Shown: positions 3,895 to 24,698 of the stretch, piece by piece
Numbering within the stretch: position 1 is the first letter of the stretch
Layout: each line of letters starts with the position of its first letter
From: Candidatus Thorarchaeota archaeon
GTDB taxonomy: Archaea > Asgardarchaeota > Thorarchaeia > Thorarchaeales > Thorarchaeaceae
Length of the DNA: 28,129 nt
Reading direction: 5' to 3'
Assembly: GCA_016933575.1 (NCBI GenBank)
Contig: JAFGAR010000099.1
Span: 1 to 28,129, forward strand
The notes under the pieces: model-generated
Database searches by the model: none
Seen by the model: the letters and a program-made list of their open reading frames with translations, nothing else
Told to the model about the DNA's origin: nothing
Translations under genes and position numbers: made by a program

Positions 3895-3909
3895 AAGTTC
3901 TTCGGTCAT

Positions 3910-4617
3910 CTATATATGATTCATTAGATCCCCAAAGGAACCAATCCTGACTCGGGATGGTTCTACGATTCCGAGTAGTTGTGCATCCTCCTTCGCTATT
4001 ATAGCAATCCTGTTCGTCCCTCGAACTGCTCCAAGACCTGCAGAGGATCTGGCACCAATACCGATATGTCCTGTACTAATCTCATCTAGAATGAAGAAAA
4101 GGACCTTCAGAGGTTCTTTTTGATCAATATTGGCTATTCGTACCTCAACAATCCCCTTAGAGTCTTCTGATTCCACTACCTGCTGGGAGAATAGGCCTCC
4201 CGGTGCATGTGTTTGTCGTTTTCGATCAATCCTGACATGATTACGAGTACGCACAGCTGTGTCTTCAAGCAGCACATCCGACACTTGCACTGCTCCTTTC
4301 AACGAGAAGTAGGTATCCTCATCTTCCTTCTTCGCAAAACCAAAGAGAATCTCCGACCAAAGCAGCTTCTTATTTCTACCATGTTTAAATTCGCACTCGA
4401 CAGGCTTCAGTGCCAACTTCTCCAGTCGTTCGAATTCGCTCCTCAAGACACCCTTTAGCGAGCTACGAGGGATCAGTGGATAGGAGCCAGATGTTGTTTC
4501 GACTTGAAGAACTTCTTCTCTATCGGGATCAGTCCCTCCAATACGAAGCCCAGAGCATATCTCGAGGCCGAATTTTAGAACTATTTCAGTTTTCAGCATG
4601 CTATAGTCGATGATCAA
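3910..4617 (-). CDS. cas7: Cas7-group RAMP (Csm3-like)
   Basis: LRIGG, PLIPRSSLKGVLRS, LFG, G-rich loop IGARSSAGLG; last gene of the cas operon. Confidence 0.88.
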   Translation of the reverse strand: MIIDYSMLKTEIVLKFGLEICSGLRIGGTDPDREEVLQVETTSGSYPLIPRSSLKGVLRSEFERLEKLALKPVECEFKHGRNKKLLWSEILFGFAKKEDEDTYFSLKGAVQVSDVLLEDTAVRTRNHVRIDRKRQTHAPGGLFSQQVVESEDSKGIVEVRIANIDQKEPLKVLFFILDEISTGHIGIGARSSAGLGAVRGTNRIAIIAKEDAQLLGIVEPSRVRIGSFGDLMNHI

Positions 4618-5750: not shown

Positions 5751-6360
5751 CTCTTAGTAGTGCCTCCTTCATTTCTTCAAGAGTCGATTCATGCTCTCCA
5801 AGATCTATCGCGATTCTTGCTCTACTTCTACCTAGTCCCTCTTTCTCAAGCGTTTTGGTAATGAAAAGCGAGATGAACATGTCCACTATCATGTCCTCTT
5901 GTGATAGTGAGTCTGGGACATCAAGAATCATTTCAAATGCAAATCTCGATCCCGGGCTTACTACTTCATGGAAAAAGAGAGCTCCGCTTTCGACGGATCT
6001 ACGTGTAGTATCCAATCGTACTCCAGGGAGGGTTTCTGTCGGAGTAGGTGCGATCAAACGTCCATCAGAGATGACCAGTTTCCCTCTATAATCCTCCACC
6101 CCGAAGAAATCTGCAACAACTGATGCATCGTTGCGAAACGTTGAGAAATATCTCTCAAGTGAACCAGTTGCTACCCGTCTGAGAATTGGAGTCAATCTAG
6201 TCAAGTTCCATCTCAATTTCCCCCTCAGGGTGCTACCTGGAATCATTGGCTTGCCTTGCGACCTCTGAATTGCTAAAATAGGCCCACCTCCTAAGCCAAC
6301 TGATCCACTTCCTATGTGCATAGTGTCCAAAGATTGAAGCACGACATCTATCCGTTTCAT
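5740..6360 (-). CDS. cas7: Cas7-group RAMP (Csm3-like)
   Basis: MHIGSG, PMIPGSTLRGKLR, FFG...RGKLVISDG, GALFFHE. Confidence 0.9.
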   Translation of the reverse strand: MKRIDVVLQSLDTMHIGSGSVGLGGGPILAIQRSQGKPMIPGSTLRGKLRWNLTRLTPILRRVATGSLERYFSTFRNDASVVADFFGVEDYRGKLVISDGRLIAPTPTETLPGVRLDTTRRSVESGALFFHEVVSPGSRFAFEMILDVPDSLSQEDMIVDMFISLFITKTLEKEGLGRSRARIAIDLGEHESTLEEMKEALLRDDV

Positions 6361-8855
6361 TATGTTCCCCCCATCATCATCTTAGTCAGCGTTGCCGCAT
6401 CAAGTACACCCGATCTTCCATGTTCATCTCCTAGAATTAGAAGCCCAATCCTCTTGTATATCTCCGACGATCTCGTCTTCACCTCTTGACGACCCACAAG
6501 ATAAACCGTAAAGGAAACTCCCTCTGCCTTGTTTGCAGCAATGTCAGGTCCCGTCCCTTGTGTGGGTAGTTTCATTCGCTCCAATGGTTCCAAGCACGCC
6601 AGTGAGAAATCTTTCAATCTCGTTGGAAGATCTTTCGCTAATCCTTGATTCACCAATAAATGCTCAAGAGAGATCTTGACAAGATTCTCAGCGAGCTGTG
6701 AAGATTCATCTTGTTGGCATATCGATAATAGAATGTCGTTTTTCAAAGATTCTAGGAAGAGAGGTCTCTGGGATGTACCTTGGTGTCTCCAAGCTTCGTG
6801 AACACGAGCTATCTCCTGAGGGGCACTTAGATTTCCAGATATTCGCTCATAGTCGATCACAATTTTCGGTATAACACCCGATAATATTCTAGATCTTGAT
6901 GTTGCCTTGCAGTATCCTAGTAAAGACTCTGAGGCTGCAAGAATAAAACGTATGGGGTAATCTGGCGGGAATGAAATTATACTGCATGATAAGCTGATAG
7001 TTTTACCCATATAGGTGTGAAACAGATCCCCCAGCTTTATCACAAATTGTAACGCAAAAACAGATGGAGTCAAAACGAGAAGATCGTCGCCTCCTACATA
7101 CAGAGTGCCAAGATCAAGTTGTAACCTAAGATTATTGGCTAGATTGATCCCCATCTCTTCATTAAGCTGATCGGTAGCATGTTGCTTAACAGTATCGACT
7201 AGCCAATCCATTGATTCTGTGACTGCTCTCTCTAGGATCTCTGTTAGGAGAATGTTCTTCTCAATCATTGCGAGTAGATTGGGCACTTTAGCTATATACG
7301 CTCCAGCTAGGTTGGCATCTGCTTTTATCATCGCCAACTCCTGTTTTCCTACGCTTATAGCTGTTCCAGTATTCCCCGCGATATAATCCATAATACCATC
7401 AGAGAACTCCTGCCAAAGCATCTTAGTAATCGATTCCCCAGCAGGACGGAATGATGATGAGCTATCATACACCCTCTTGAAGGAGAATTGGTTCCCATAA
7501 TCCAACAATCTGGAACAATCACCACAGTAAGAGCGCGTTTTCGTTCCTATTCCAATAATCTTTGAAGCAGGTTCAGTTCTACACGAGTCACATCTTTTTT
7601 CGATGCCATAATAGAATTCACTTTGTTGCAGTGTCGTTAGATCATTCTTATTGAGTGTCGAGGAGATCTTTGCGTTCTCAAGGTGATCGAGAAACGACCC
7701 CGCATCATCATCAAGCGTGAATGACGTGGTTGAAAGAACCAATTTGACATGGCGCGTAATCTTTGAGAAGCCACTTACTAAGTGAGTACATAGATCCTTG
7801 GAAACAGTGTGATGGACTATAACAATGAAATTACCTCCACCTGAAGTTATACACGCTTCAAGTGGAATTCGATGCTCCCGAAGGATAGTATAAAGTGAAG
7901 GATATCCCGCCTCCGTTAAGGATGGATCATTCTTCATATAGCCATCAATTAATGAAGAAGCACCTTTCATTTGACTCAGTCTATCCGTGTTTTCAATGAA
8001 ATGCTGTATTCCTGACACATCCGCAAGTATTATCTCTAGATCACCTGTGTTTCCATTGACAGGTCGTGGTTCATACTCATTGATAGCCAATGCCTTTGTT
8101 ACTTCTTCATAGTCACCGATCGATAGTTTCTTCCATGCGGCTTGACTCTCAAAATCCTCTACCTTCCACTTCAGTATCTTACAGATAGAGGTCCTGGATG
8201 ATTTGTACGATTGAAGATATCTTACTATTTCTCGAATAGCCCTTTGAACATCTGTTTCATTGCCATCTGATTTGAGCATATCCACTGTCTGCTCGATCAA
8301 TGGATCTGGTAGAATCTGATCGAAAAGCATCCTCACCCGTTTGAGAAGCAGTTGATAGTCTATCTGTGCGCTGTCATTAAGACCAAGAAAATAGACCAGT
8401 GCTGCTAAACGCATTATGGCCAGATTCTCTCGTTCAATGTCATAGAATTTTGCTGTCAGGAAAGCGGATGTTAGGAGTGCTGCACTTATCGTACCGGTCA
8501 TATTCAATCCCGGTCTTGGATCCGGCGGAATGCTTTGCAGAGCTTCAAGATCCCGTGCAATGTTCTCCAATAGTTCATGCAACTCTATGACATCGATCTT
8601 CAACTCACTCATAACCGTAGCAGCAGCAGCTCGTCTGTCAGCGGACGAAAAGGGAGATCGAAGAAGAAGTGTGAGGATATCTGTGAGATCCCAAATCCTA
8701 TCAAAGCCGCAGATATCCTGAAATCCCAGATTCTTGAGAGTAGAATTCAAACTAACGCAAGATGCATCGATAATTGCCCCCGCATTCTCTATTGCGATAA
8801 CATATCTAGGAATCCCACCGATTAATCTTGGGGTGAAATAGCTCCTGTACAGCAT
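6360..8855 (-). CDS. cas10: Cas10 large subunit; Palm2 GGDD intact, HD domain degenerate
   Basis: ADVSGIQHFI and GGGNF (Palm1); CDSC...CGDC zinc finger; IKADAN and YVGGDDL (Palm2); N-terminal PPDPRPGLN motif. Confidence 0.95.
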   Translation of the reverse strand: MLYRSYFTPRLIGGIPRYVIAIENAGAIIDASCVSLNSTLKNLGFQDICGFDRIWDLTDILTLLLRSPFSSADRRAAAATVMSELKIDVIELHELLENIARDLEALQSIPPDPRPGLNMTGTISAALLTSAFLTAKFYDIERENLAIMRLAALVYFLGLNDSAQIDYQLLLKRVRMLFDQILPDPLIEQTVDMLKSDGNETDVQRAIREIVRYLQSYKSSRTSICKILKWKVEDFESQAAWKKLSIGDYEEVTKALAINEYEPRPVNGNTGDLEIILADVSGIQHFIENTDRLSQMKGASSLIDGYMKNDPSLTEAGYPSLYTILREHRIPLEACITSGGGNFIVIVHHTVSKDLCTHLVSGFSKITRHVKLVLSTTSFTLDDDAGSFLDHLENAKISSTLNKNDLTTLQQSEFYYGIEKRCDSCRTEPASKIIGIGTKTRSYCGDCSRLLDYGNQFSFKRVYDSSSSFRPAGESITKMLWQEFSDGIMDYIAGNTGTAISVGKQELAMIKADANLAGAYIAKVPNLLAMIEKNILLTEILERAVTESMDWLVDTVKQHATDQLNEEMGINLANNLRLQLDLGTLYVGGDDLLVLTPSVFALQFVIKLGDLFHTYMGKTISLSCSIISFPPDYPIRFILAASESLLGYCKATSRSRILSGVIPKIVIDYERISGNLSAPQEIARVHEAWRHQGTSQRPLFLESLKNDILLSICQQDESSQLAENLVKISLEHLLVNQGLAKDLPTRLKDFSLACLEPLERMKLPTQGTGPDIAANKAEGVSFTVYLVGRQEVKTRSSEIYKRIGLLILGDEHGRSGVLDAATLTKMMMGGT

Positions 8856-12065: not shown

Positions 12066-12177
12066 CACACCACGCTCCTAATCCATCACCATGTCACGAA
12101 CCTAGATATAAGATTATAGGATTTTTCCTGTGAATATGGTTTATCGAGGAAACATGCGTTTGTGATGGAAAGTTTCT

Positions 12178-12996
12178 CTACATTAGCTCTATATCGGTTG
12201 AGATCATTCCAAGACCCGCAGTACGGTGCTTTCCGATATTACTATATTCTGCGAAACGAGCAAGACCAGCAGTCATCCGCGACATTGGGATCGAGCCATC
12301 TTTGATGGTATAGTACACAGTGCCAATGAATCCAACTATCTGCATACCAGATCCTGTCTTTAGTGGATAGGTTCTTATCGTGTATCTCGGGATCTCGATA
12401 TTTCTTTTTACCCACTCCCTGTACTCCCCAAGCGGGAAGAAATAGGTCGTTCTATCTATAGACTGCCAGATTTTCATCAAGGCAGGGAAGACCTTTTCAG
12501 GCATAGGGAACAAGCATAATGCGTTCGAATCTGAATGTGCCAGCTGCGTTGGAGTGCGGAATGTCAATGCGATCCGAATCCTCTCAGCTTTTTGCAGCTC
12601 TGGTGCGTCTACCCATGTATGCATGATTTCTTGGGGCTCCATAATCGAAACACCAATGCGTCGTACTGGCAAGATGTTCTCATACAAGCGAATGTACAAA
12701 TCATCCTTCAGAATCAGGTGCTTGGTGAAATCACGGTAGTTTTGGTGATTAAGGAGAGTGATATCGAAGGAGTCCTCAATTCCCTGTCGTAGTGTCGTGC
12801 TGAAATGCCTGTCATGCGACATAATGCCGAGGGCATACATCCGAACTCCCTGTCCTTGGTGAGTATCACTACTCAGTTTTCTATCATAATTCTTCAAGAT
12901 GTCGAGAAAGGCTGCGCGAAGAGGGATGCCTGAGAATCCTATCTCCTTGGTCACGGGACTGGTTATATCAAACCTTAGAGATATCAAGCTTAGCAA
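12178..12996 (-). CDS. cas6: Cas6 crRNA-processing endoribonuclease
   Basis: FRTPT, LFPMPEKVF, GFIG and C-terminal IGKHRTAGLG loop; TTG start preceded by AGGAGG. Confidence 0.93.
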   Translation of the reverse strand: MLSLISLRFDITSPVTKEIGFSGIPLRAAFLDILKNYDRKLSSDTHQGQGVRMYALGIMSHDRHFSTTLRQGIEDSFDITLLNHQNYRDFTKHLILKDDLYIRLYENILPVRRIGVSIMEPQEIMHTWVDAPELQKAERIRIALTFRTPTQLAHSDSNALCLFPMPEKVFPALMKIWQSIDRTTYFFPLGEYREWVKRNIEIPRYTIRTYPLKTGSGMQIVGFIGTVYYTIKDGSIPMSRMTAGLARFAEYSNIGKHRTAGLGMISTDIELM

Positions 12997-13759: not shown

Positions 13760-14458
13760 TCAGTGTTCAGTTTTCTTAAGGCCTTTCCATGCACGAACGG
13801 TTTTCCCAAGTTCGGTTATGTACACCTCACGGACCCGCCCACTCGACTCGCTGACCCTACGTTCTACCAATCCCCAATTCATAAGCTTCTTCACAAGTTT
13901 CGATGCGCTCGACGTTTGCTCTAAGGATGCCATCTCCATAGCATCTCGCCATCTTTTGCTAAGATCCTTTAGGGACTTTACCATCCCGTTTTCGCTATTG
14001 TAAAGCACGTCTAACATTGTAAGCTGTGCCTTGGTAAGACTAAGCGTGGGCAAGGTTGGTATCTCCCTAATGTCCTTCGGTTGACGTGTTTCATGATCGG
14101 TGATGGTAACAAGAAACATATCGCTCTCAGTTAGAAATGCCGCCTGGGATAACGCAAGAGTAACGAATCTGGTACCAAGTCCCACATAGAAAACAGGGCT
14201 GTATCCCTTACACTCATCCTGTATCATTGTTAGAGTGGTACTGAGAATAGCCATATAATCCTCTGGATCGACCTGCTTGATGACGAACTTGATACCTTTC
14301 GGTTGATAGGTGTCCCTGAGTTTCTCAGCATGCATTACTGAGGAAGCATCCGCGACCAAGGCAACCATCTTGTAGCTCCCTTGAATCATGGCAAACTCGA
14401 TTCTCTCATGATCGTACATTCCAACTCCAGCTATTAGCACGCGTTTTCCCTTAGCCAT
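13760..14458 (-). CDS. csa3: Csa3-like CARF + winged HTH transcriptional regulator
   Basis: N-terminal Rossmann-like domain (VLIAGVG, FYVGLGTRFVTLAL). C-terminal MarR-like wHTH (VKKLMNWGLVER...GRVREVYITELG). GAGGTG precedes ATG 14458. Confidence 0.8.
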   Translation of the reverse strand: MAKGKRVLIAGVGMYDHERIEFAMIQGSYKMVALVADASSVMHAEKLRDTYQPKGIKFVIKQVDPEDYMAILSTTLTMIQDECKGYSPVFYVGLGTRFVTLALSQAAFLTESDMFLVTITDHETRQPKDIREIPTLPTLSLTKAQLTMLDVLYNSENGMVKSLKDLSKRWRDAMEMASLEQTSSASKLVKKLMNWGLVERRVSESSGRVREVYITELGKTVRAWKGLKKTEH

Positions 14459-14563
14459 GTTTCCACCTCTCACCAAGCATTTGATGGATTATGCTCCATG
14501 ATTATAACATTTGCCTTTCGCATGAAAGCTTTGTATTGATGATGTATATCCAAATGACTATTA

Positions 14564-16582
14564 CTAATTTCTATCGTCTCGGAGCACAGCCAAACGATTG
14601 TGTTGATGCAACACCTCATGATCCTCAATATATGGACGTTTCGAGAGTTCTCGCCTAATATCCACGAATGCCTTTGGTGGGTTGTGGAAGAAGACCACCT
14701 TCTTTGGCATCAAGCTATCGAAGAGTTCCATGAGCTGATCCTTGTCTGGATGATAGTTGAATATCTGATGCGATTCGAACTCCCAATTAAGGACCTTGCA
14801 TTTGACGGGCACTTTGTGGAATCTATCGTCGCCCTCTTTTCCTATCTCAACAAATCCCCTTCCTGATATCAGATCTAGCGTTCCACTACTTCTTGGCGCA
14901 CCGATGACTACGACGAGATTATCTTTTCCCCCCAATACCTGCTTCAATGCACTGAATCTATCCGAGCTAAGTTTCCCATGTAGATTAGCGTCCATGCTAA
15001 TCACACATTCGCCTTTGATCGCATTCTTTAGACCGATTCCTCCAAGATGTGGATAGTCTTCTTCCAATCGACGAATCATAGCTGAGTGGAATGGATCATT
15101 GTGCATTTGGATCTTCTCCTCGATGGATGGATCTAAGTCATCAGCCCTATCACGGAGAATGCACATCTGTTCCCATGTTGCTGAATCAAAGTAGAATGGG
15201 ATTCTCCCTGCATTCCAATCAATGAGTCCTTGGCGAATAATGAAATAGGTCACTATCGCTCCTATGTTCTGATCTGAAAGAAGTAGAGTGACTCCTCCCT
15301 TTTGATATACATCGACGATGTCACTATACAATCGAGCTCGCGTCAGGGATTCCTTTGGAAACTCAAGATCCGCTGCGGATCCATCGCAAATGATCGCGTC
15401 AGGGTGTACCTTCAATGTACTCAGTGCGCTTCTCCCTGATGCTATCGGCTCGAATTCCAAGAGATTGAAGTCTCCTGTGAAAAGAATGCTGTAGTCATCC
15501 ACTGCAAAAAGAGTCATAATAGCACCTGGGAAATGCCCCGCTTGGCATATCTTGATTGAGAATCCCTGTCCGAATTCCAATGTTTCTCCATAGGATACCA
15601 GTACCATTCTCGCTAGCAGCTTTGAGAATTTCCTATCGAGCAATTTCGAGGCTTTCTCAAGTTGCATTCCCTCTTGTTCATCCCTGCTAAGAGCTTGATA
15701 GTCGTCTTCCTTCATGATCTCCTTCTTAGTGATCTCTAGGATTTCTTGATATTCTCTACTCCTTGCCAAGCCCAACTCAAGTGTGGCTCTGGTAGTTAGC
15801 AGAGGCGCCTCACAACCGTATTTCTCATAGAGATCGATGACTCCCCCGAAATGGTCTGAGTGGGCATGTGAAACTACGACTAGATCAAGCTTTTCCGGAC
15901 CAATACTCTCAATGAGATCTGAGCAATCAGCAGTCTTTTCAGGAGGCCAATAGAATCCAGCATCAAGGAGGATACGGAGTCCACCAAGCCGAAGCTTCAT
16001 GCTGCTTTGTCCACTTCCACCTACTTGTCTTACTGCTACCCATTTCTTTGTCGCATCTATCGAGTTAAGTTTGAAGGGTTTTAGATGCGTAGCAGTCCTT
16101 GCACGAGTGTCTAGCCAGCAGGAAACGAGCTCCCGTGGCAAAGGCGGACCGGTAATATATAGATAGACTCCGAATTCGTTGGCGTATCGCTCAATATGCT
16201 TGAATAGCTCGGTTCCTCGTCGTATCCGAACCTGTACAACTGGGTACTCGCTAAAATTCTTCATTATGAGAAAGCTGTGTAGTGAATATTTATCCACAGA
16301 GGGGATTTCTTTATCGATCCAGATCGTATTGACTAGCTTATCAAGAGCGAAGCTCTTGCGATCGTGTTTTGATATGATAGATTGAATTCTTTCCTCATAG
16401 ACTTTCGTCGGTTTCCATTCCCAGTCCAAATAGCCTACACGGAATACATGACGCTTACCATCAATCTTGAAGTTCATCAGGAGAGGCTTACCGCACTCTG
16501 AGCATTTGTCATTGTATTGTGAAGGTCTAAAGCAATATGGACAGATCATTTCATTACTCACAGATTCCACCACAACCGACAT
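14564..16582 (-). CDS. Metallo-beta-lactamase/beta-CASP nuclease with N-terminal zinc ribbon
   Basis: LLDAG, SHAHSDH, AGHFPGA, FTGD; beta-CASP-like CDGS, YHPD, FFH; N-terminal CPYC...CSEC. Start uncertain (16582-16624). Confidence 0.88.
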   Translation of the reverse strand: MSVVVESVSNEMICPYCFRPSQYNDKCSECGKPLLMNFKIDGKRHVFRVGYLDWEWKPTKVYEERIQSIISKHDRKSFALDKLVNTIWIDKEIPSVDKYSLHSFLIMKNFSEYPVVQVRIRRGTELFKHIERYANEFGVYLYITGPPLPRELVSCWLDTRARTATHLKPFKLNSIDATKKWVAVRQVGGSGQSSMKLRLGGLRILLDAGFYWPPEKTADCSDLIESIGPEKLDLVVVSHAHSDHFGGVIDLYEKYGCEAPLLTTRATLELGLARSREYQEILEITKKEIMKEDDYQALSRDEQEGMQLEKASKLLDRKFSKLLARMVLVSYGETLEFGQGFSIKICQAGHFPGAIMTLFAVDDYSILFTGDFNLLEFEPIASGRSALSTLKVHPDAIICDGSAADLEFPKESLTRARLYSDIVDVYQKGGVTLLLSDQNIGAIVTYFIIRQGLIDWNAGRIPFYFDSATWEQMCILRDRADDLDPSIEEKIQMHNDPFHSAMIRRLEEDYPHLGGIGLKNAIKGECVISMDANLHGKLSSDRFSALKQVLGGKDNLVVVIGAPRSSGTLDLISGRGFVEIGKEGDDRFHKVPVKCKVLNWEFESHQIFNYHPDKDQLMELFDSLMPKKVVFFHNPPKAFVDIRRELSKRPYIEDHEVLHQHNRLAVLRDDRN

Positions 16583-16692
16583 AGAGGAGCTGCGATATTT
16601 GATTCTTATCTGTATCACTTGCAATCAGGAGGGAAAGTTTCTGGCGGATATCCTAAATGCTCATGGTTCAAGGATATTCTGGTGGTAAAAGC

Positions 16693-17388
16693 ATGAGGGT
16701 AGGTATAGAAGATCGAGATGGCACAATGCGAGTGGATGATAGCTCTCTGTACAATATAGCTTTGGGCGGCTCTTTGGCTGAGGTGTTGAAGCAACTTGCT
16801 GATGCAGGTACACTTGTTGATATCCTTACGATCACTTCACCATCTCTTAATCAGGATGAATCCTTACTCAAAAGAGAAACTCACGGTGTTAGAATCATCA
16901 TGGTTGGTGAGGATCATGTTGTTCTGGGTCCGAAGAGACCCATCTTTACATCCTTCCTACCATTGGATGATATCCTTATGGTACGAATCACAGAAACTCA
17001 AGAATGTGATGAAGGATACATCGAGGATGACGATTTCGATGACGAGTTCTTAATTCCCGATGGGCTCTTACACGAAATTAGTCCTCTCGACCTTGAGGAT
17101 GCTATTGCTGACACCTCTGTTGTAGTTCTATTGATTATTGGAGAGGAGGACAACTCCAAGATCGTTGAAATGATGCAAAGCCTTGCAGAGGAATTTCACG
17201 AAGATGCTCTCTTCATTAGGGTAGCTCCAACAGAGGAAGTTGAGACAGAGTTTGGAGTAGATGAAGTTCCTGCTGTAGTCATTCTATCTGATGATGAGAT
17301 ATTGAGCCAAATTGTAGGAGTACAGCAAATCAGAAGATATCGTAAGGATATCTTGGATGCCATTGACCTTTCTGAGGCGGGTGACTGA
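16693..17388 (+). CDS. Unknown N-terminal domain + acidic linker + thioredoxin-like fold lacking CxxC
   Basis: C-terminal LAEEF...FIRV...EFGVDEVPAVVIL...QIVG pattern of the Trx fold; no CxxC. Confidence 0.65.
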   Translation: MRVGIEDRDGTMRVDDSSLYNIALGGSLAEVLKQLADAGTLVDILTITSPSLNQDESLLKRETHGVRIIMVGEDHVVLGPKRPIFTSFLPLDDILMVRITETQECDEGYIEDDDFDDEFLIPDGLLHEISPLDLEDAIADTSVVVLLIIGEEDNSKIVEMMQSLAEEFHEDALFIRVAPTEEVETEFGVDEVPAVVILSDDEILSQIVGVQQIRRYRKDILDAIDLSEAGD

Positions 17389-17389
17389 C

Positions 17390-18091
17390 ATGAGTAGATC
17401 TATCATTCCCTCAATTCGATCTAATGACTTTGAGGAAACAATTGCCAAGTATGAGCGAGTTATCGTAGATTTTTATTCAGATTTCTGCGCTCCATGCTCG
17501 GCTTTAAGCTCTGCCTTAGAAGAGCTAATTCCTGAATACCCAGAATCATATTACTTCAAGATAGATATCGAAGAGGCTTCTGAACTAGCTGATGATATGG
17601 ATGTCCAAGCCATTCCGTGTCTAATGTTCTTCAATGATGGAAAGATCAAGAAACAGGTCATTGGATATCTTGGTCCTGAGAAGCTGGAGAATGATATCCG
17701 AAGTTTCTTGGGTTATGAGACCAATGATCTTTCAGACACGTTCGCAGACGGTGAACTTTGGGACCTTGATGATTCTGATGCAGTCGATATGATACAAAAT
17801 GTGCGTTTGTCCGTTCTCTATTTCATTGGCTCTGAGAAAACAGGAAGCGGATCCCTAAAACGGAATCTCAAGATGCTGGCAAATGAATTCGAAGGGATGA
17901 TTTTCTTTGGCATGCTTGAGTCTGTAGACTCTCCAGCTACAAGGAATAGACTAAGAATCCCACGAAAACAGCATGTCATTTTATTCCTTCAAGATGGCTT
18001 ACCAAAGAGCAGATTGATCGGGAAGGCGGGAATGCGTGAACTGAGGACGGAGATAGCCCGATTGCTATCACAAAAGTATCAAGAATCATGA
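17390..18091 (+). CDS. Tandem thioredoxin-domain protein (first domain with CAPC, second without CxxC)
   Basis: IVDFYSDFCAPC, VQAIPCLMFFNDG; second Trx-like repeat. Confidence 0.88.
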   Translation: MSRSIIPSIRSNDFEETIAKYERVIVDFYSDFCAPCSALSSALEELIPEYPESYYFKIDIEEASELADDMDVQAIPCLMFFNDGKIKKQVIGYLGPEKLENDIRSFLGYETNDLSDTFADGELWDLDDSDAVDMIQNVRLSVLYFIGSEKTGSGSLKRNLKMLANEFEGMIFFGMLESVDSPATRNRLRIPRKQHVILFLQDGLPKSRLIGKAGMRELRTEIARLLSQKYQES

Positions 18092-18162
18092 ACGTCTGGT
18101 GGAAAGCTTCTCATTGTTAGTTGATATCTATTTGCCTCTTTCCAAGTTAGGAGGTATATGGA

Positions 18163-19014
18163 TTGGAGTTCTACACACAGAAAGGTGCCGTTTGCGCGTC
18201 TATCGTCAGCTTTAGCTTGAGCATCGGCTTTAGAGGTTTGATAATCTGTTTTTCGACAATCAAGGATACAGTGGCACTGCTCTTGTATTTTCCTCTGTGG
18301 ATTTCTATTGATCTGCTGTTGATAGTCGCTTTCTCAATCTATGGATTCTTTTTTGTATCTCTATCAATCATCATTACGAATCACTTCCAAATGTTTCTCT
18401 TGATCGATCCCTTGATGTATTCGTTTTTTGAAATTAATATACTATCAATTCAGATACTAGCACAATATAGCGAGAAGCTAAATTCACTTGTAGGTGCAGA
18501 TATTTACGATTATGTTCTTTCAATTCTAATTCCTTTTCTCCTGGCAATATCCTTCACCTGTATTCTCCTCTTTCACATGTCAATACCAATCTATGTATCA
18601 TGGGTTACTCAAATTGCTACTCTATTCACAGGCTATTTTGGCGCCCTGTTGCTAGGCATGTATCCTTGCCGATACTTCCTTCTGCAAAGAAAGGCAAATC
18701 CCTACACATGGGGTTCTCCATTCCTCATGGATCTACTTTACTTCAATATACAAGGCACTTCTCATGGTAGATCTCTTAGCCATGTGACCCAACCAGTGCA
18801 TTCTACACGAAGACCTCAATCAACTGCGAGAAGTGACCCTCGTAGTGATCACATAATTGGAACCCCGCGGAGCGAATCCAGAAGAGTCAATGATACGATC
18901 ATTGCTCCGAATATGGTACTGATAACCCCCCGAGGAGAGATAATCTGTTCAAGATGTGGGACCTCGAATTGGACAAGCAGGCGACGTTGTAGAAGATGTC
19001 AGGCAGCACTATAG
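18163..19014 (+). CDS. Multi-pass membrane protein with C-terminal RanBP2-type zinc finger
   Basis: About 4-5 hydrophobic segments, a polar linker, then CSRC-GTS-N-WTSRRR-CRRC (C-x2-C-x3-N-x6-C-x2-C); AGGAGG upstream. Confidence 0.7.
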   Translation: MEFYTQKGAVCASIVSFSLSIGFRGLIICFSTIKDTVALLLYFPLWISIDLLLIVAFSIYGFFFVSLSIIITNHFQMFLLIDPLMYSFFEINILSIQILAQYSEKLNSLVGADIYDYVLSILIPFLLAISFTCILLFHMSIPIYVSWVTQIATLFTGYFGALLLGMYPCRYFLLQRKANPYTWGSPFLMDLLYFNIQGTSHGRSLSHVTQPVHSTRRPQSTARSDPRSDHIIGTPRSESRRVNDTIIAPNMVLITPRGEIICSRCGTSNWTSRRRCRRCQAAL

Positions 19015-19125
19015 ATGCGAAATCGTATCTGTGTTACTAAAGAAAAGTTTCCCATGAAATAGAAAGTTTCCAAGATTGGATTCAATACATCATATTACTT
19101 AGGTATGTTTTGAGGGTCATACGAA

Positions 19126-19527
19126 ATGTCTGGAAACGATGATGTTGTCTATATCGATGAGGAAGGAAATGTGATTTCTGCGAATAGAGTTTCAAAAACC
19201 TCAAAGCAACCCAAAGGAGCTTTATCAGCAATACGGGATAATTTGGGAGAGTTCTCCAACGATAGAAATGACGGTTCTGATGTTGTCTATATAGACGAGG
19301 AAGGGAATGTGATATCTGGAAACCGAGTCCCATCAACGACAGATGCGGAGAAGGGCGCAAAGACAGCAATTCGAGATAATCTTGGTGAATTCTCAGAGAA
19401 TAGAGATCAAGTATCGAAGGTCGTTCATGTAGATGAAGAAGGTAATGTGATATCTACATCAGAGGAAGATGAAGAACCTGAGAAGCAGATAACAGCTATT
19501 CGTGATAACCTTGGAGAATTTAGGTAG
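19126..19527 (+). CDS. Three-unit tandem-repeat peptide protein; putative conjugation-tag or RiPP-like precursor
   Basis: Units of 44, 46 and 43 aa, each VV[YH][IV]DEEGNVIS-variable-AIRDNLGEF[S/R]. DNA differences within the motifs are mostly synonymous, supporting that it is coding. Function is inferred. Confidence 0.8.
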   Translation: MSGNDDVVYIDEEGNVISANRVSKTSKQPKGALSAIRDNLGEFSNDRNDGSDVVYIDEEGNVISGNRVPSTTDAEKGAKTAIRDNLGEFSENRDQVSKVVHVDEEGNVISTSEEDEEPEKQITAIRDNLGEFR

Positions 19528-19540
19528 AGGGAGATCAGAC

Positions 19541-19984
19541 ATGAAGCGAGGACAGAGCTATCACATGGGCGTTAGTCGGGAGATACTCATAATGGGTGCT
19601 GATTTGAATCGTCCTCGCATGAGAGTCGAATATGAGAGAGTTTCGCAGTTTTGCAAGGGATTCAGCTTCAAGAAGAAAACTTTGGCGGGAAAAGAGGTAC
19701 TAGACAGAGTTGAGGGATATTTCACCATCGAGGGTAGACGATTCGGACTTCGTATCATGATTCCAAAGAACTATCCATACGAGATCCCGAGGGTATTTCC
19801 CCTTGGGTGGAGGCCCCAAGGAGCACCTCATCAATACTGCGGTGGTGATCTCTGTTTGATGCGACCCGAACAGTGGAATGAGATATACTCCCTCGCTTTC
19901 GTCATCAAAAAGGCGCAATACTGGGTTCACAAGTATCTCAAATGGCGAATGACCGGAAAGTGGCCTGGTAGGTCTCAAGATTAG
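19541..19984 (+). CDS. Prokaryotic E2 (UBC-fold) conjugating enzyme
   Basis: IPKNYPYEIPRV, PHQY-x3-DLCL (catalytic Cys), downstream W, and C-terminal W-x3-G-x-WPG. Confidence 0.85.
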   Translation: MKRGQSYHMGVSREILIMGADLNRPRMRVEYERVSQFCKGFSFKKKTLAGKEVLDRVEGYFTIEGRRFGLRIMIPKNYPYEIPRVFPLGWRPQGAPHQYCGGDLCLMRPEQWNEIYSLAFVIKKAQYWVHKYLKWRMTGKWPGRSQD

Positions 19985-19995
19985 GAGGCGAAAGG

Positions 19996-20847
19996 ATGGA
20001 TTTCGATAGAATTCAGTATATTCTTGCACCAGAGGAACTTGAAAAGAAGCGAGTCGTTGTGATAGGCCTGGGAAGTGGAGGTGCTCCTGTCGTTCAGCAT
20101 CTTGCTATGAGCGGGGTCCGCAAGTGGTCTTTGTTTGATCCCGATCTCCTTGATGAAGTGAACCTTGTCAAACATCCTGGGATGCGAAAGGACCTAGGGA
20201 AGACTAAGATCGCTGTGATAGCTGAATGGCTAATGGATAGGAATCCAGATTCCGAGATCCGAGAATTCCCTGAGGATATCCTCGATTCAACAGACTTCGA
20301 GAGAGAGGCTAGAAATGCGCATCTTATCATCTCTGCAACTGATACACTTTCAGTTCGGCAGTTCATCAATAGAATCGCTGTGAGGCATGGTATTCCTTGT
20401 GTCACTGCCAGCGTCTTTCGAACAGCTTTCGGAGGAGAAGTGTACTCGTATATCCCCGGGAAAACTGGATGCTATCAGTGTATGAACATCGTCAGCGGTA
20501 AGCTGGGTTGGGGGAATATCGAGAATCAAGTTGAGATGACTGAAGATGAACAGGACCGAATATACGGACTCGGTCAGGAAGATTATCGAGCATCAGGTCT
20601 ATCGATGGACATCGCGATAATTTCAGCGATTATGGCAAAAAGAGCCCTAAGCCTTCTATTAGATTCTCCCAATCCAGTTTATTTTCCCCAGGATTCCTCC
20701 AATTATCTGATTTTCTATATGCGTGGAATGGGATCAATCCCCTCGCTGTCAAGCTTGAAGTATGCAATTCCTGCTCAGAAGGATTGCTTCTGTTCGTTTA
20801 ACGACGGCGAAGAATCAGCTGCTAATGAAATCAGTGACCTGGAGTGA
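19996..20847 (+). CDS. ThiF/MoeB/E1-like adenylating enzyme
   Basis: VVVIGLGSGG, FDPD-x5-NLVKH, DLGKTK, SATD, GCYQC and C-terminal CFC. Confidence 0.93.
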   Translation: MDFDRIQYILAPEELEKKRVVVIGLGSGGAPVVQHLAMSGVRKWSLFDPDLLDEVNLVKHPGMRKDLGKTKIAVIAEWLMDRNPDSEIREFPEDILDSTDFEREARNAHLIISATDTLSVRQFINRIAVRHGIPCVTASVFRTAFGGEVYSYIPGKTGCYQCMNIVSGKLGWGNIENQVEMTEDEQDRIYGLGQEDYRASGLSMDIAIISAIMAKRALSLLLDSPNPVYFPQDSSNYLIFYMRGMGSIPSLSSLKYAIPAQKDCFCSFNDGEESAANEISDLE

Positions 20848-21884
20848 TATGGATGAAACTAAAGGGATTTTTGCAGAAACAAGAAAGAGTTCTCTATCTC
20901 ACTCAACTACGGGAATCATTTGGCCTCGATAGGGTGATTATCTCAACCAATCTACTCAACTCAATGGTCAATCGAGCCAGCGAATATCCCGTCATGGAAG
21001 AAGGCGGTGTGCTGGTTGGATATATTGAAAGCGATTGGGATCCGTTGAATGGTTTCTCTAATCCCCATGCGAAGATTCATATCGTGAACTTTATCCCAAG
21101 TGGTCCACGAGCGCAAAGGTCTTCTACCCATCTATTTTCAGACCTTACATTTCAGGAATTTGAGTTTCAAAGACTTCATGATATCGATCCTAACATGCTA
21201 CATCTTGGTAGCTGGCACAGTCACCACTGTAATGGATTGAAGAATCTAAGTGAAGGTGATCTAAATTCATACTTCAATATTCTCCACTCAAAGAATCATG
21301 CCCATGACTTCTATCTGGCAGTACTTCTACATACCTTTCCTACTGGTAGGTTGAGAAAGAAAAGTGAAGTAATGCATTCCTTCTCTTTCTACTTGATATC
21401 TCGAAAAACCGGAAAGACCGTGTTCATCTTGGACAGTTCTTGTATTGAAGTAACTCAGGATCTTGTGCTATATGCAGATTTCATTAGTTCAGGATACGAG
21501 CTTCCAACTGAATTAGATGTTCAAGAGAAGCGTGAAAGATCATGGTTCATTAGAGATCAAGCGAAGGAGATTTTGAAAGAGGACAATATTTTACTTAGTT
21601 CATTACTATCCGAGTTTCCCTATATTATTCAAGGCAACTCTATTGTCATAGAAGGCACATACGCTCTTAGACTAGTACGTCGATACTATGCAGGAAACAC
21701 CTTGATCGAATACCAATATCCGGAAACAACTGATGCTGAAGGAATAGAGATCCTCCTGTACGATATTTCCCAGATGGAAAACGAACATAGTGATCTGACG
21801 CTCAAAATCAGGGCTGGTCCGATTAGTATTCGGCATGAGATCTTCTCAGTGGTGCTGGGTTATTTTCAAGAATCTTGGACCTAA
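20844..21884 (+). CDS. JAB/JAMM (MPN+) metallopeptidase with unknown C-terminal domain
   Basis: EEGGVLVG and LGSWHSHH-x7-SEGD; start overlaps the E1 stop (GTGA). Confidence 0.9.
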   Translation: MIWMKLKGFLQKQERVLYLTQLRESFGLDRVIISTNLLNSMVNRASEYPVMEEGGVLVGYIESDWDPLNGFSNPHAKIHIVNFIPSGPRAQRSSTHLFSDLTFQEFEFQRLHDIDPNMLHLGSWHSHHCNGLKNLSEGDLNSYFNILHSKNHAHDFYLAVLLHTFPTGRLRKKSEVMHSFSFYLISRKTGKTVFILDSSCIEVTQDLVLYADFISSGYELPTELDVQEKRERSWFIRDQAKEILKEDNILLSSLLSEFPYIIQGNSIVIEGTYALRLVRRYYAGNTLIEYQYPETTDAEGIEILLYDISQMENEHSDLTLKIRAGPISIRHEIFSVVLGYFQESWT

Positions 21885-21893
21885 GGAAACATC

Positions 21894-22505
21894 TCACTCA
21901 TATTGATTTCTTATCTTTGTAATCATCTCATTAAGATCGTTGATATCGGTGAGTACAATTTCTGCGTCATCGGAATCGAGCTCATATACAGGTTTCCCCA
22001 TGATTTCAGGACTGAACCTCCGAAGCCAGTAGTATGATAATGTTACCTTTCGTTCGTACCTATTGTTGAGGATATATCCCGCTAAGACCGCGCTTGATGC
22101 CATCGTTTTTCTTCCTGCTGTAGTATCTATTATGATCCTTTCGTTTCTTGCCGTCTTGTGAAAAATCCCTTCCGTTATGCACTTTACACCAAGGCTTAGG
22201 TTCTCTTCAGGTATCCATACTATGTCGTCTGGGTGGAAGGTGATATCATCCAATCCATCCGAATGCATATGTTCAAGATTCTTCGTAAGCAGATCAATTA
22301 CCTCTTTGACATACTGCTGACTCGTAGATGAGGGTTCTGCTCTCTCATCCCAAGATGTGACAAAGAAGATGTCACCTATTGGAACATGTCTATCGTCCAT
22401 CAAATAGGATGCTATCGAATTCGCACAGGCAATTGGCGTTATTCCTACAACCGAAAAATAGGACCCCGTTGGTTTCAGCCTCAAGAAAAGCAACACTCCT
22501 ATCAA
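21894..22505 (-). CDS. Stand-alone CARF domain protein (candidate ring nuclease or cOA sensor)
   Basis: SVVGITP, FFVTS and IIIDTTAGRKTMAS CARF motifs; no effector domain; start uncertain. Confidence 0.75.
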   Translation of the reverse strand: MIGVLLFLRLKPTGSYFSVVGITPIACANSIASYLMDDRHVPIGDIFFVTSWDERAEPSSTSQQYVKEVIDLLTKNLEHMHSDGLDDITFHPDDIVWIPEENLSLGVKCITEGIFHKTARNERIIIDTTAGRKTMASSAVLAGYILNNRYERKVTLSYYWLRRFSPEIMGKPVYELDSDDAEIVLTDINDLNEMITKIRNQYE

Positions 22506-22682: not shown

Positions 22683-24698
22683 TCATTCAAAAGACATCTC
22701 AATATGGCTTCTTTCATGAATATTCTCATTGACATTTGTGTTTGGGTGGGTACTCTCAGATGTCGTATCTAACCTTTCTCTGTGAAAGAGCACTATTGAT
22801 TCATATCGTATGTTTCCTCTGAGGGATTTCTCAAGGGGTCGCTTCAAATACATCTTAGGATTCAGTCCATGATTAGATCCAAGTTCAATTAGGATTCTAT
22901 CATTTTCAACTTCTAAGAATGTTCCATGGTTTGATCTACTACGCCCCCTTGAGTTGAATGTCGCTTTTAGTCGCGTATCCACTAGAAGTGATAAAAGATC
23001 CTGCTGTGTTAGGAGTATACTCCTAGCAGATTTTTCGAAATGCGCATCATCTAAGAGATACAACTCCCCCGTACCAGTTGAAGCAACTCTCTCGTCTGAG
23101 ATCTTCAAATGATTGTTGCCAATTACAATGGCAATCCGTGATCCATGGACAAGAGTGGATGTTTGAGCCTCCAGCGACCTGTCGAGGAAGAGAATGAACT
23201 CTGCAATAGACATTGCTTCACGACTTCTTCCAAAATCTACGAGCGCCTTAACTAACGTCTTTCCATAATCTGTTGGGATCAATTCTATATTGCATTTCCT
23301 ACTTTTTCTTCTTGGATTCCCTGCTAGTCGCTGATCAAGCGTTTGAAGATCCTCCTCCGATTGAATGAATCCCATCAATATCATTTGTTCCAGATCATTC
23401 CCAATATAATCAATTGCAGTGGAATAGGGTGGAGAGTTTACTCCCGCTCGCATGGGTCCCAATTTTCGGAAGACTCCGATATCCGATGCATCTCCTCTTA
23501 CAATAACACTTCTTCCATGGTTCACTCCCAGTTTCCGCCTAATAATCGAGGATAGGATTCCAGTACGATAGATCAATTGGCATCTATCACTAAAGAGGGC
23601 AAAGGCATCCGTTTTCTTCTTCTTCTTCTTTTGAGAACTAATAGCCATGGTCAATCCCAGTTCAAGTAGAGGTTTTAGACAATCAGGGGATCTCATAATA
23701 AACTGCTTTATCCATATGAGATCAGAAAATTTGGTCATGTCATGCTTCAATATCCCTTGCGATTCTTCAGATCGGATACCTCCTAAGTCTTCACGATAGT
23801 CTTGAACTACATCACAGTATTGTCTGTAGTACTCTAAACTATCATCTGTCATAGATAATAGATCTGTTTTCGATTGAGCGACTGCTATCGCGACAGGATT
23901 GATGTCCATTCCTATTCCATCAAGTCCCATCAGATTGGTTTCAATCAAAGACGTGCCGCTACCGGAGAAGCAGTCAATGACGATCCCCCTTTCCTGTGGA
24001 TGTACAATGTTAACTAAGGCTTTTGCCAGTCGCGGATGAAATCGACCTTTGTAGGGATATAACGCGTGAGATAGATAAAGCGAGGGTTCCTTCCTCTCAG
24101 CTACATAGTCCAAGAGCCGTTTTCCTACCCGTGCCCCAGCAGAGGCTGGTATTCGTTTTAGCATATTGAATCGGCTGGAAACGATCCTATCAAAGAACTT
24201 CTCCATTGTGAGAGTTGGGAGAGTTTTTGTCACCTTTAAGATGTACTCGCTCATCTCAATGAAAAACTGATGGGCGATTAGGCGTATTGCTCTCTTCTCT
24301 CCAATTGCGAACACTTGCCTATCAATCCCAAGCATCTCCGATTTTTCTAGTGAGGATACCTTTCTATCACCGATGGCGTATATTTCAGATGTATATGCAA
24401 GTCGCCGCTGGAGTTTTTGAACAACTGATTCATCATCTACATCAACCCTGAATCCCTGAGTCGGTCCGTATGCCACTTCGAATAGAAAATAATCCTGGAA
24501 TCGAATAGACTCTATAATTGGTTCAGATGATATTCTATTCATGAAGGACTTGAATGGCTCTATGTGTAGCTCATCTACGAGATTGACAATGGGTTCTGGT
24601 TTTTTTCCTGTGATACTTTCGATCTCTAGTTGTGCGAGGTAGATTTCATGTTCGTCTTTGATGGTTTTTGAGAGTTTAAGGATCGTATACACTTGCAC
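22683..24698 (-). CDS. Amino-DNA methyltransferase (probably N4-cytosine) with N-terminal extension
   Basis: HALYPYKGRFHP, IDCFSGSGTS (motif I), MDINP, NSPPY (motif IV). Confidence 0.85.
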   Translation of the reverse strand: MQVYTILKLSKTIKDEHEIYLAQLEIESITGKKPEPIVNLVDELHIEPFKSFMNRISSEPIIESIRFQDYFLFEVAYGPTQGFRVDVDDESVVQKLQRRLAYTSEIYAIGDRKVSSLEKSEMLGIDRQVFAIGEKRAIRLIAHQFFIEMSEYILKVTKTLPTLTMEKFFDRIVSSRFNMLKRIPASAGARVGKRLLDYVAERKEPSLYLSHALYPYKGRFHPRLAKALVNIVHPQERGIVIDCFSGSGTSLIETNLMGLDGIGMDINPVAIAVAQSKTDLLSMTDDSLEYYRQYCDVVQDYREDLGGIRSEESQGILKHDMTKFSDLIWIKQFIMRSPDCLKPLLELGLTMAISSQKKKKKKTDAFALFSDRCQLIYRTGILSSIIRRKLGVNHGRSVIVRGDASDIGVFRKLGPMRAGVNSPPYSTAIDYIGNDLEQMILMGFIQSEEDLQTLDQRLAGNPRRKSRKCNIELIPTDYGKTLVKALVDFGRSREAMSIAEFILFLDRSLEAQTSTLVHGSRIAIVIGNNHLKISDERVASTGTGELYLLDDAHFEKSARSILLTQQDLLSLLVDTRLKATFNSRGRSRSNHGTFLEVENDRILIELGSNHGLNPKMYLKRPLEKSLRGNIRYESIVLFHRERLDTTSESTHPNTNVNENIHERSHIEMSFE

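Follow-up and report, generated by a model that had tools for sequence, protein, structure and literature searches.

A 28,129-nucleotide (nt) stretch of DNA from Candidatus Thorarchaeota archaeon (contig JAFGAR010000099.1 of assembly GCA_016933575.1), referred to here as the window, carries at positions 19126–21884 a four-gene cassette that encodes a tandem-repeat peptide, a ubiquitin-conjugating enzyme (E2), a ThiF-type activating enzyme (E1) and a JAMM/JAB metallopeptidase (JAB). We suggest, with slightly more confidence than doubt, that this is a split conjugation cassette of the Cap2/Cap3 type whose substrate is a mostly unfolded peptide tag of ~45 amino acids (aa) instead of a beta-grasp ubiquitin-like protein (Ubl) or a CD-NTase (a nucleotidyltransferase related to cGAS and DncV). 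The suggestion draws on the genes and their catalytic residues, on selection acting on the peptide, and on how strictly it is linked to the E2 in the genomes, in some cases by fusion. To our knowledge, the substrates of the E1/E2 pathways characterised so far are of two kinds, beta-grasp Ubls (ubiquitin, SAMP, BilA, BubA) and tails of large enzymes (CD-NTase).

The cassette and its repeat peptide

The ORF list places all four open reading frames (ORFs) of the cassette on the forward strand. Spacers of 13 nt between the repeat gene and the E2 and of 11 nt between the E2 and the E1, followed by a 4-nt overlap of the E1 and JAB genes, argue for a single transcription unit. The E2 frame opens at 19502, and its start was set to the ATG at 19541 on the basis of an alignment with relatives and of a GGGAG ribosome-binding site 7–8 nt 5′ of that codon. 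The original prediction, made from the letters of the window alone, had described four tightly spaced, co-oriented genes for a repeat peptide, an E2 with a catalytic Cys, a ThiF/E1 and a JAMM peptidase, and this description is borne out by the ORFs, their spacing, the profile matches and the invariant catalytic residues given below. The possibility that the peptide and the E2 are one gene broken by a frameshift or an assembly error was rejected, as the related locus L003 is split likewise, with a start and a ribosome-binding site of its own, and the window E2 is preceded by a GGGAG box. Rfam and tRNA scans of the window were empty, and a search of sequencing runs matched the DNA in the probable source sample only, with no RNA run among those listed.

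Parts of these cassettes seem to escape gene prediction. The ORF of the window peptide is absent from a collection of 5.8 billion proteins, and the E2 of the related locus L005 (5272–5712, TTG start) is not called as a gene; gene and defence-system catalogues therefore under-count both.

The repeat protein consists of three head-to-tail units followed by one extra Arg. Every unit has an acidic lead, a beta-hairpin VV[YH][IV]DEEGNVIS, a variable linker and a tail [ST]AIRDNLGEF. At the DNA level the units are 73–80% identical at a spacing of 138 nt, and Tandem Repeats Finder reports nothing in the ORF because the copies are too diverged. Between copies, the motifs (D/K)VV(Y/H)(I/V)DEEGNVIS and (S/T)AIRDNLGEF show synonymous differences at 4–7 of their 10–13 codons and non-synonymous differences at 0–3. 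In both motifs synonymous changes thus outnumber non-synonymous ones, and therefore the repeat ORF is translated and its motifs are under purifying selection.

An alignment of 18 units from the window and its relatives yields a general unit made of an acidic lead, a hairpin [IV]x[IV]D[ED]xG[NE][IV], a linker of 9–20 residues that varies in both length and composition, and a tail [ST][AV][IL](R/H)DxxGE[FY]. The tail Asp (D41) and Glu (E45) are invariant, and D14, G17 and G44 are nearly so. The tail Gly is present in 17 of the 18 units, the exception being the third unit of a relative, P0004, which has Pro (PEF). In 16 of 18 cases a Ser, Ala or Gly comes next after the tail aromatic, and three single tags end exactly at the Tyr. 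An Arg stands four residues ahead of the tail Gly, and in ubiquitin R72 likewise stands four residues ahead of G76. The tail pattern has four matches in the 6.9 million six-frame residues of the genome, three of them within the repeat ORF.

AlphaFold, when given the whole repeat protein without an alignment, returns a low-confidence beta-beta-alpha arrangement for each unit (predicted local distance difference test, pLDDT, 44). When given the 18-unit alignment it predicts the hairpin alone with confidence (pLDDT ~88), with the tail and the rest as coil. A unit of 43–46 aa in which only the hairpin is confidently predicted is much smaller than known beta-grasp domains and too short for that fold.

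Two database resemblances of the repeat protein were rejected. The SSSPR-51 repeat of secreted Gram-positive surface proteins (PF18877/TIGR04308) scored 27.6 against a cut-off of 27 and 37 against a cut-off of 35, at model positions 3–27 only and with no full-length (~49–51 aa) match; because the match comprises the D-E-x-G-N hairpin/turn alone and the host is archaeal, it does not indicate membership. A Streptococcus MucBP fragment (2.9e-4), the sole return of a word-indexed protein search, was set aside as a motif-level resemblance. Comparison with PHROGs gave nothing meaningful.

The peptide accompanies the E2 in related loci

The original prediction had proposed a search of homologous neighbourhoods for the peptide. 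A YIDEEGN…GE[FY]-type peptide lies beside, or is fused to, the homologous E2 in every related locus that can be read, so that the repeat ORF is missing from none of these operons; nor did any of the other observations that the prediction had named as telling against it, where they can be made in silico, come to light. This count takes in the loci whose upstream sequence or gene calls could be read, the P0047 contig entering it with a small gene in the place of the tag. For P0002, P0004, P0005 and P0047 the contigs are known from gene lists alone, and one cassette, the second on the P0004 contig, is left out of the count.

The fused form was found with phmmer, which returned two real relatives among 1.84 billion representatives, P0004 (323 aa) and P0005 (321 aa). 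In both, two to three units (TAIRDxxGE[FY], V[IV]DE[YE]GNV) are fused N-terminally to an E2 that is 47–48% identical to the window E2, and in both a ThiF gene and a JAB-sized gene of 394–439 aa follow. The P0004 contig (6984 bp) carries two tandem cassettes. The first comprises the tag-E2 fusion, a ThiF gene of 295 aa and a gene of 394 aa. The second is split, with an E2 of 143 aa, a ThiF gene of 285 aa and a gene of 346 aa, sizes that match those of the window genes, and has an uncalled stretch of 883 nt upstream.

A search with the E1 gave ~330 relatives, the closest from metagenome-assembled genomes of Candidatus Thorarchaeota archaeon. The E2 and E1 are separate genes in all nine loci read. 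The number of tag units per locus is one (43–84 aa), three (the window and L003) or two to three when fused to the E2 (Table 1). The claim that a tandem-repeat peptide leads the module thus holds for the window and L003 but not in general, the usual form being a single peptide of 43–51 aa and the tandem a local variant.

Further supporting the linkage, a tag profile run against 400 Asgard genomes gave strong matches (E < 1e-16) in exactly G000, G388 and G389, the genomes in which an E2 profile gave strong matches (E < 1e-44). Single-sequence searches of 40 relatives with the repeat protein and the JAB had found no match, and G388 and G389 were later found with the profiles. E2 profiles and a degenerate DNA pattern for the E2 active site, run against genome, JGI metagenome and viral contig collections, gave no confirmed relative, and tblastn of the repeat protein gave no match in plasmids and phages.

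One related locus, L059, is a cyclic-oligonucleotide-based antiphage signalling system (CBASS). It encodes an 84-aa hairpin tag and a second protein of 105 aa that has a different, probably helical body, and the two share the tail TILRDPKGEY plus an extension. The CD-NTase of this locus has no tail of the TILRDPKGEY type.

A more distant Asgard variant (L011/L040, G151:C192, 318–2363) has a 47-aa ORF directly before an E2 that matches the profile at 1.4e-18, and a 469-aa E1 with an N-terminal extension. The ORF has a KIYIDKNGRI hairpin and ends in …KHQVWY; the C-terminal aromatic recurs there, and the rest of the tail differs.

Searches for a conventional substrate

The absence of a beta-grasp Ubl from the window, as originally predicted, agrees with our scans, which gave no ubiquitin or ThiS family match there. 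Ubiquitin (PF00240) was not found anywhere in the genome; the ThiS family has six matches there, all on other contigs, and by family scans and locus gene lists the window and the related loci are all without a ThiS or ubiquitin gene. The companion claim, that the window has no nucleotidyltransferase, stands for CD-NTase/SMODS, which was found in no window ORF scanned, but calls for qualification in its wider sense, as the nucleotide cyclase Cas10 of a type III CRISPR-Cas (clustered regularly interspaced short palindromic repeats and associated proteins) locus and CARF proteins are present. A Pfam scan of neighbouring genes gave no match to DUF6527. None of the neighbouring proteins has a conserved Gly-type or GE[FY] C-terminus, namely the metallo-beta-lactamase (MBL) proteins, the membrane zinc-ribbon protein, the CARF protein and the CD-NTase of L059.

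The E2, E1 and JAB

The window E2 matches the PADLOC E2 and E1-E2 models with scores down to 5e-8, and a seven-sequence profile of the E2 family matches eukaryotic UBC enzymes, e.g. UBE2W, at 4e-7 over the active-site half. PF26395 (E2-CBASS) is annotated on all of the homologous E2s, and His97 and Cys105 (GDLCLM) are invariant among the relatives.

The E1 matches Pfam ThiF at 9e-35 and has a GLGSGG loop and a CxxC…CxC zinc tetrad. In an alignment of seven orthologues the only invariant Cys residues are those of the tetrad (C159, C162, C264 and C266), and the crossover loop is without Cys. The best solved relatives of the E1 profile are MccB, ThiF, MoeB and UBA5.

The JAB matches Pfam Prok-JAB weakly (0.0047), the PADLOC JAB model at 3e-9 and the JAB part of NF058523 (6A-MBL cap2_3) at 1.7e-6. 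Its JAMM signature, E52…H125-S-H127…S136-x-x-D139, is invariant in eight JAB sequences. The C-terminal part (residues ~170–346) is kept from bacteria to archaea, e.g. in W-[WY]…L-x-[ED]-D and Y-x-Y-P, and this domain has no match in Pfam, NCBIfam, PADLOC, PHROG or PDB sequences.

Proposed mechanism and alternatives

The E2 fusions and the varying copy number (one, three, or two to three fused) argue for proteolytic release of the units, of the kind seen in polyubiquitin and BubAB, and favour the view of the peptide as a short non-ubiquitin tag. The tandem and E2-fused forms both need such release, and the JAMM peptidase of the operon is the obvious candidate for it. We infer every chemical step, the target and the biological role of the cassette as follows. 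The JAB would cut the precursor at each tail motif, after either the Gly or the aromatic residue, and the E1 would adenylate the freed C-terminus of the tag. The acyl group would then pass from the adenylate directly to Cys105 of the E2, the simplest route because the E1 has no loop cysteine. Finally, the E2 would transfer the tag to an amine on a target, a modification that the JAB could reverse.

Precedents for such steps exist. In Bub, cleavage of the Ubl-E2 fusion BubAB follows a conserved Gly and is carried out by the JAB domain of BubCD (PMC11601596), and BilC pre-processes (trims) BilA (10.1101/2023.09.26.559546). Cap2 acts on a protein that is not a Ubl, cGAS, by adenylating its disordered C-terminal tail, and Cap3 cuts exactly after the cGAS C-terminus (10.1101/2022.03.31.486616), so that this enzyme lineage can activate a disordered non-Ubl tail. 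As for the position of the cut, cleavage after the Gly would fit JAMM and E1 chemistry, by analogy with what JAMM enzymes do with Ubls. Cleavage after the aromatic would fit the native GEY ends, the better conservation of the Glu and the aromatic than of the Gly, and the small residue that follows the aromatic in repeats and fusions.

Several observations weigh against conjugation of the peptide. The aromatic after Gly-Glu is better conserved than the Gly itself, as the PEF unit of P0004 illustrates, and many tags stop exactly at GEY. If the cut falls after the aromatic, the E1 would have to accept a bulky Tyr/Phe C-terminus, which would be unusual, given that a G436E change in cGAS reportedly abolishes its function in CBASS. 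If the cut falls after the Gly, a two-residue pro-peptide so well conserved would be unusual among Ubl precursors. AlphaFold confidence is low for the tail, and a classic E1~tag thioester cannot form on an E1 without a catalytic cysteine. The cassette is also rare, being found in three of the 86 genomes searched in the family (G000 and two of the 85 others), with no further case among the genus's 27 other genomes.

Alternatively, the peptide could be a regulator or pseudo-substrate, its tail filling the active site of the E1, the JAB or the E2 (in cis when fused) and keeping the cassette inactive until infection, with another protein as the true substrate. An auto-inhibitory N-terminal extension would account for fusion to the E2 as well as a precursor does, the conserved Glu-aromatic pair lies beyond the Gly, one fused unit is without the Gly, and the type II CBASS, Pycsar and MBL pathways are assumed in print to conjugate their own signalling enzyme (PMC11601596). 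We nevertheless consider this explanation unlikely. Whole units arranged head to tail, each with its own tail, are hard to explain for an inhibitor and are typical of tag precursors. L059 grafts the same tail onto a second, unrelated body, as expected of a portable activation tail, and no neighbouring protein offers a conserved Gly-type or GE[FY] C-terminus of its own.

Less plausible still is a different substrate for the E1 and E2, namely the C-terminus of some protein encoded near the cassette or farther away (the membrane zinc-ribbon protein, the CARF protein and a ThiS/SAMP-type carrier are examples), with the peptide as an adaptor or an E3-like specificity factor. The six ThiS-family genes elsewhere in the genome could supply a carrier, every archaeal locus keeps the membrane zinc-ribbon protein alongside the cassette, and CBASS sets a precedent for non-Ubl substrates. 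Yet the ThiS and ubiquitin genes are missing from the window and the related loci, and the peptide is the sole partner kept across archaeal, MBL-type and CBASS-type contexts while the effectors change; the portable tail of L059 and the multiplication of whole units also speak against an adaptor.

A pathway resembling those for ribosomally synthesised and post-translationally modified peptides (RiPPs), which the original prediction had offered as its alternative, gains little from the analysis and is highly improbable. In it the E1 would work as MccB or PaaA do, on the C-terminus of a peptide released from a multi-core precursor, and the product would be a modified small molecule and not a protein conjugate. 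The multi-core layout, the E1 without a catalytic cysteine and the MccB chains at the top of the solved E1 matches (8e-22) agree with it. Against it, the edge of MccB over ThiF is marginal (81 against 78 bits, ~3 bits, over the generic adenylation domain), the peptide-clamp domain of MccB is absent, the E1 being only 283 aa long, neither an E2 with an invariant Cys nor a JAB peptidase belongs to RiPP pathways, there is no conserved transporter or immunity gene, and most relatives have a single 'core', in some cases fused to the E2.

Relation to known systems

Judged by sequence, the enzymes are a split member of the Cap2/Cap3 and 6A-MBL lineage that fails the defining features of each named system. 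The original prediction of a conjugation system with a short non-ubiquitin tag therefore needs dividing: the peptide is constantly linked or fused to the E2 at variable copy number, as such a system would have it, but the enzymes are not of the unrecognised architecture that had been claimed, having relatives in Cap2/Cap3 and 6A-MBL.

With type II CBASS Cap2/Cap3 and with 6A-MBL the cassette shares the E2 family (PF26395), a ThiF-type E1, a JAB and a defence context, and in both of those systems, as proposed here, the substrate is a flexible C-terminal tail and not a beta-grasp body. It differs from both in having a dedicated peptide of ~45 aa, which occurs singly, in tandem or as an E2 fusion, in the substrate position. 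CBASS Cap2 is an E2-E1 fusion with an E1 catalytic cysteine, whereas here the two are separate genes and the only invariant Cys residues of the E1 are those of the zinc tetrad. The type II CBASS operon also has a CD-NTase, which the window does not, though the relative L059 has SMODS and SAVED. The 6A-MBL system consists of an E2-E1-JAB 'cap2_3' fusion and an MBL-fold protein (NF058523 and NF058524), in contrast to the split genes of the cassette. Against NF058523, with its cut-off of 320 bits, the window E1 scores 59.8 bits and the JAB 26.9 bits, and the E2 has no match. The MBL proteins of the bacterial relatives match NF058524 weakly (39 bits against a cut-off of 220). The 686-aa MBL encoded in the window was considered as a 6A-MBL partner and rejected, being a beta-CASP nuclease with no NF058524 match and only generic MBL similarity to the bacterial partner. 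6A_MBL has been listed once in an Asgard genome (PMC13700489).

Type I Bub resembles the cassette in that P0004 and P0005 have the modifier N-terminal to the E2 as in BubAB, a JAB is encoded in the operon, and the E1 is without a catalytic cysteine in both (PMC11601596). In Bub, however, the modifier is built from between one and three domains of the beta-grasp fold, the E2 uses Ser (forming an oxyester) and there is a DUF6527 protease, as opposed to a hairpin-plus-tail peptide, Cys105 in the E2 and no DUF6527 in the genes scanned. The N-terminal modifier-E2 fusion of Bub is split in the window, and in P0004 and P0005, where it is kept, it contains peptide units and not beta-grasp domains.

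The Bil system (BilABCD) likewise has separate genes for modifier, E2, JAB and E1, with the modifier first. Its JAB pre-processes the modifier, and it has an antiviral role. BilA is a beta-grasp Ubl and BilD a large E1 with inactive-adenylation (IAD), active-adenylation (AAD) and catalytic-cysteine (CYS) domains, in contrast to units of 43–46 aa and a 283-aa E1 with one ThiF domain and no loop Cys.

A parallel to the window precursor, in architecture and not in homology, is eukaryotic polyubiquitin (UBI4/UBB/UBC), which likewise consists of head-to-tail units that each end in the tail, with one or more extra residues on the last unit and synonymous divergence beside protein identity. The window units differ in being 43–46 aa long, in not being beta-grasp and in having a conserved Glu-aromatic pair after the tail Gly, and their processing enzyme would be the operon JAMM. 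Pup is likewise a short, disordered tag with a Gly-…-Glu C-terminal region, but it is ligated through a Glu side chain by PafA/Dop, which have a glutamine-synthetase fold, with no E1, E2 or JAB, and no homology was detected. In microcin C7 synthesis (MccA/MccB) a ThiF-fold enzyme adenylates the C-terminus of a short ribosomal peptide, and among solved structures the E1 profile matches MccB best. The cassette E1 differs in having no peptide-clamp domain, microcin synthesis has nothing that corresponds to the E2 and JAB, and the cassette peptide is much longer.

A full-text search of the literature found no description of such a peptide tag. What appears new in the window and its relatives is the polyubiquitin-like triple precursor, the natural tag-E2 fusions, the grafting of the tail onto a second protein, the strict co-occurrence of tag and E2 in Asgard genomes, and the setting beside type III CRISPR, CARF and Csa3 genes. 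If conjugation of the peptide is correct, then at ~45 residues it would be the smallest modifier for E1/E2 machinery, the ubiquitin fold would be dispensable and specificity would be carried by the tail. The occurrence of the peptide as a single gene, a poly-precursor, an E2 fusion and a grafted tail makes the idea testable with simple substrates for the JAB, E1 and E2.

Genomic neighbourhood and candidate regulation

The cassette lies in a region that also holds a type III CRISPR-Cas locus (Table 1).

Table 1. Features of the window and gene orders of related loci (tag, the peptide ORF; empty cells, nothing recorded).
Locus	Feature	Position	Strand	Description
Window	CRISPR array	1 to ~2500		at least 34 repeats of 37 nt (ATTGCAAAAGTAGATCCCGTGTTTAGGGAATTGCAAC), spacers ~37 nt; runs off the left end of the window
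Window	Card1-like gene	2758–3894		
Window	RAMP genes and Cas10	up to 11667; Cas10 6360–8855		type III CRISPR-Cas locus
Window	Cas6	12178–12996		
Window	Csa3-like CARF-winged helix-turn-helix regulator	13760–14476		weak match
Window	beta-CASP MBL nuclease	14564–16624	-	686 aa, N-terminal extension of ~190 aa
Window	two thioredoxin-like genes, overlapping	16657–18091	+	243 and 244 aa
Window	membrane zinc-ribbon protein	18163–19014	+	multi-pass; C-terminal C-x2-C-x3-N-x6-C-x2-C (RanBP2/NZF pattern)
Window	quasi-palindrome GGAAA[GC]TTTCC, two copies	19042–19071		55–85 nt upstream of the tag start
Window	repeat protein (putative poly-tag precursor)	19126–19527	+	133 aa, three head-to-tail units and one extra Arg
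Window	repeat units	19126–19254, 19255–19392, 19393–19521	+	43, 46 and 43 aa; then a single Arg
Window	E2	19541–19984	+	147 aa, Cap2-type (E2-CBASS family), ubiquitin-conjugating fold; Cys105 codon 19853–19855, His97
Window	E1	19996–20847	+	283 aa, ThiF/MoeB-type, single adenylation domain
Window	JAB	20844–21884	+	346 aa, JAMM/JAB metallopeptidase at residues ~30–165 and C-terminal domain of ~180 aa
Window	CARF-like protein	21894–22505	-	203 aa, stand-alone, convergent with the JAB; TIGR02710 5.5e-5, PADLOC CARF/Csx1 1.4e-5 to 8e-5
Window	methyltransferase-like gene	22683–24698	-	
L003	tag, 3 units, 142 aa, 6-residue C-terminal extension			membrane zinc-ribbon protein, tag, E2, E1, JAB
L004	tag, 1 unit, 43 aa, ending AIHDSKGEY, then stop			E2, E1, JAB
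L005 (= G388)	tag, 1 unit, 47 aa			tag, membrane-NYN-zinc-ribbon protein, uncalled E2, E1, JAB, Cas1, Cas2
L039 (= G389)	tag, 1 unit			E2, E1, JAB; tag and membrane protein ~4 kb downstream
L007 (high GC, presumably bacterial)	tag, 1 unit, 63 aa, ending TVLRDPEGEYAGAD			E2, E1, JAB-sized gene
L041, L043–45, L058	tags of 48–51 aa, ending TVLRDPEGEY or GEYA			ComEC-like MBL, tag, E2, E1, JAB
P0047 contig (gene list only)	48-aa gene in tag position			MBL, 48-aa gene, E2, E1, JAB-sized gene
L059 (CBASS)	tag, 84 aa, and second protein, 105 aa	2380–7837		SMODS, tag, E2, E1, JAB, 105-aa protein, SAVED

Directly upstream of the cassette, the membrane zinc-ribbon protein matches Pfam Zn_ribbon_RanBP at only 0.024. 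Homologues stand beside the cassette in L003, L004, L005 and L039 with 24–28% identity, an FPxWIxIE membrane motif and the Cys tetrad, so that the protein is present in all archaeal loci. The C-x2-C-x3-N-x6-C-x2-C end is found in four of the five, with another spacing in L004, and the L005 protein has an inserted NYN nuclease domain (Pfam 9e-7). This protein is a candidate effector, target or tag reader.

On the other side of the cassette, the CARF-like protein has homologues of 39–44% identity at 2219–2788 (reverse strand) in L005 and 3493–4068 (forward strand) in L039, where they overlap a PIN-like gene of 352–358 aa. We infer that the CARF-like protein belongs to the module, and its recurrence beside the cassette in three genomes of the Thorarchaeia family hints at a link to cyclic-oligoadenylate signalling.

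The 686-aa beta-CASP MBL matches aCPSF1 at 1.8e-24 and the type VII CRISPR Cas14 model at 5.7e-12, both far below the cut-off. Of the two thioredoxin-like proteins, that of 244 aa begins with a thioredoxin domain (1.3e-19), and a HyaE-like region of the thioredoxin fold is weakly matched in both; neither has a homologue in the related loci.

The quasi-palindrome upstream of the tag gene occurs, as exact GGAAA[GC]TTTCC, in ~10 distinct places in the 3.47-Mb genome. Three of these are in the window: before the cas operon (12167–12177), in the divergent region between the beta-CASP and thioredoxin genes (16632–16642) and upstream of the tag gene (19042–19071, including 19062), and copies with one mismatch lie at 18101 and 22573. 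Elsewhere in the genome, copies stand ahead of a cas1 gene and of a PIN toxin pair. The element is also found upstream of the tag in L003, L005 and L039 and of the E2 in L005 (L003 964; L005 3559 and 5181; L039 6148). This distribution suggests that GGAAA[GC]TTTCC is a candidate operator of a defence regulon through which the tag is co-regulated with CRISPR-Cas, and the Csa3-like protein is possibly the regulator that acts there.

The defence-island setting of the window, together with the ties of the bacterial relatives to a ComEC-like MBL or to a CD-NTase plus SAVED, makes an antiviral role of the cassette the most likely one. The occurrence of the peptide beside Asgard type III CRISPR-Cas on the one hand and bacterial MBL and CBASS effectors on the other suggests a portable regulatory or effector module of antiviral immunity. 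A more specific proposal, which we put forward as speculation with the chances well against it, is that the cassette is an accessory arm of Asgard type III CRISPR-Cas immunity under Csa3 and cyclic-oligoadenylate control. Upon infection the JAMM peptidase would free the 45-residue tags from the polyubiquitin-like precursor, and viral proteins, host proteins or the membrane zinc-ribbon protein would receive them through the Cys-less E1 and the Cap2-type E2. On this proposal, a minimal, non-beta-grasp form of ubiquitin-type tagging would be common to bacteria and the archaeal relatives of eukaryotes.

The bacterial relatives lie in the context of a ComEC-like MBL hydrolase or, in L059, of a CD-NTase and SAVED, and they adjoin fused helix-turn-helix-plus-M78-peptidase regulators, an MqsA-type antitoxin gene and transposases.

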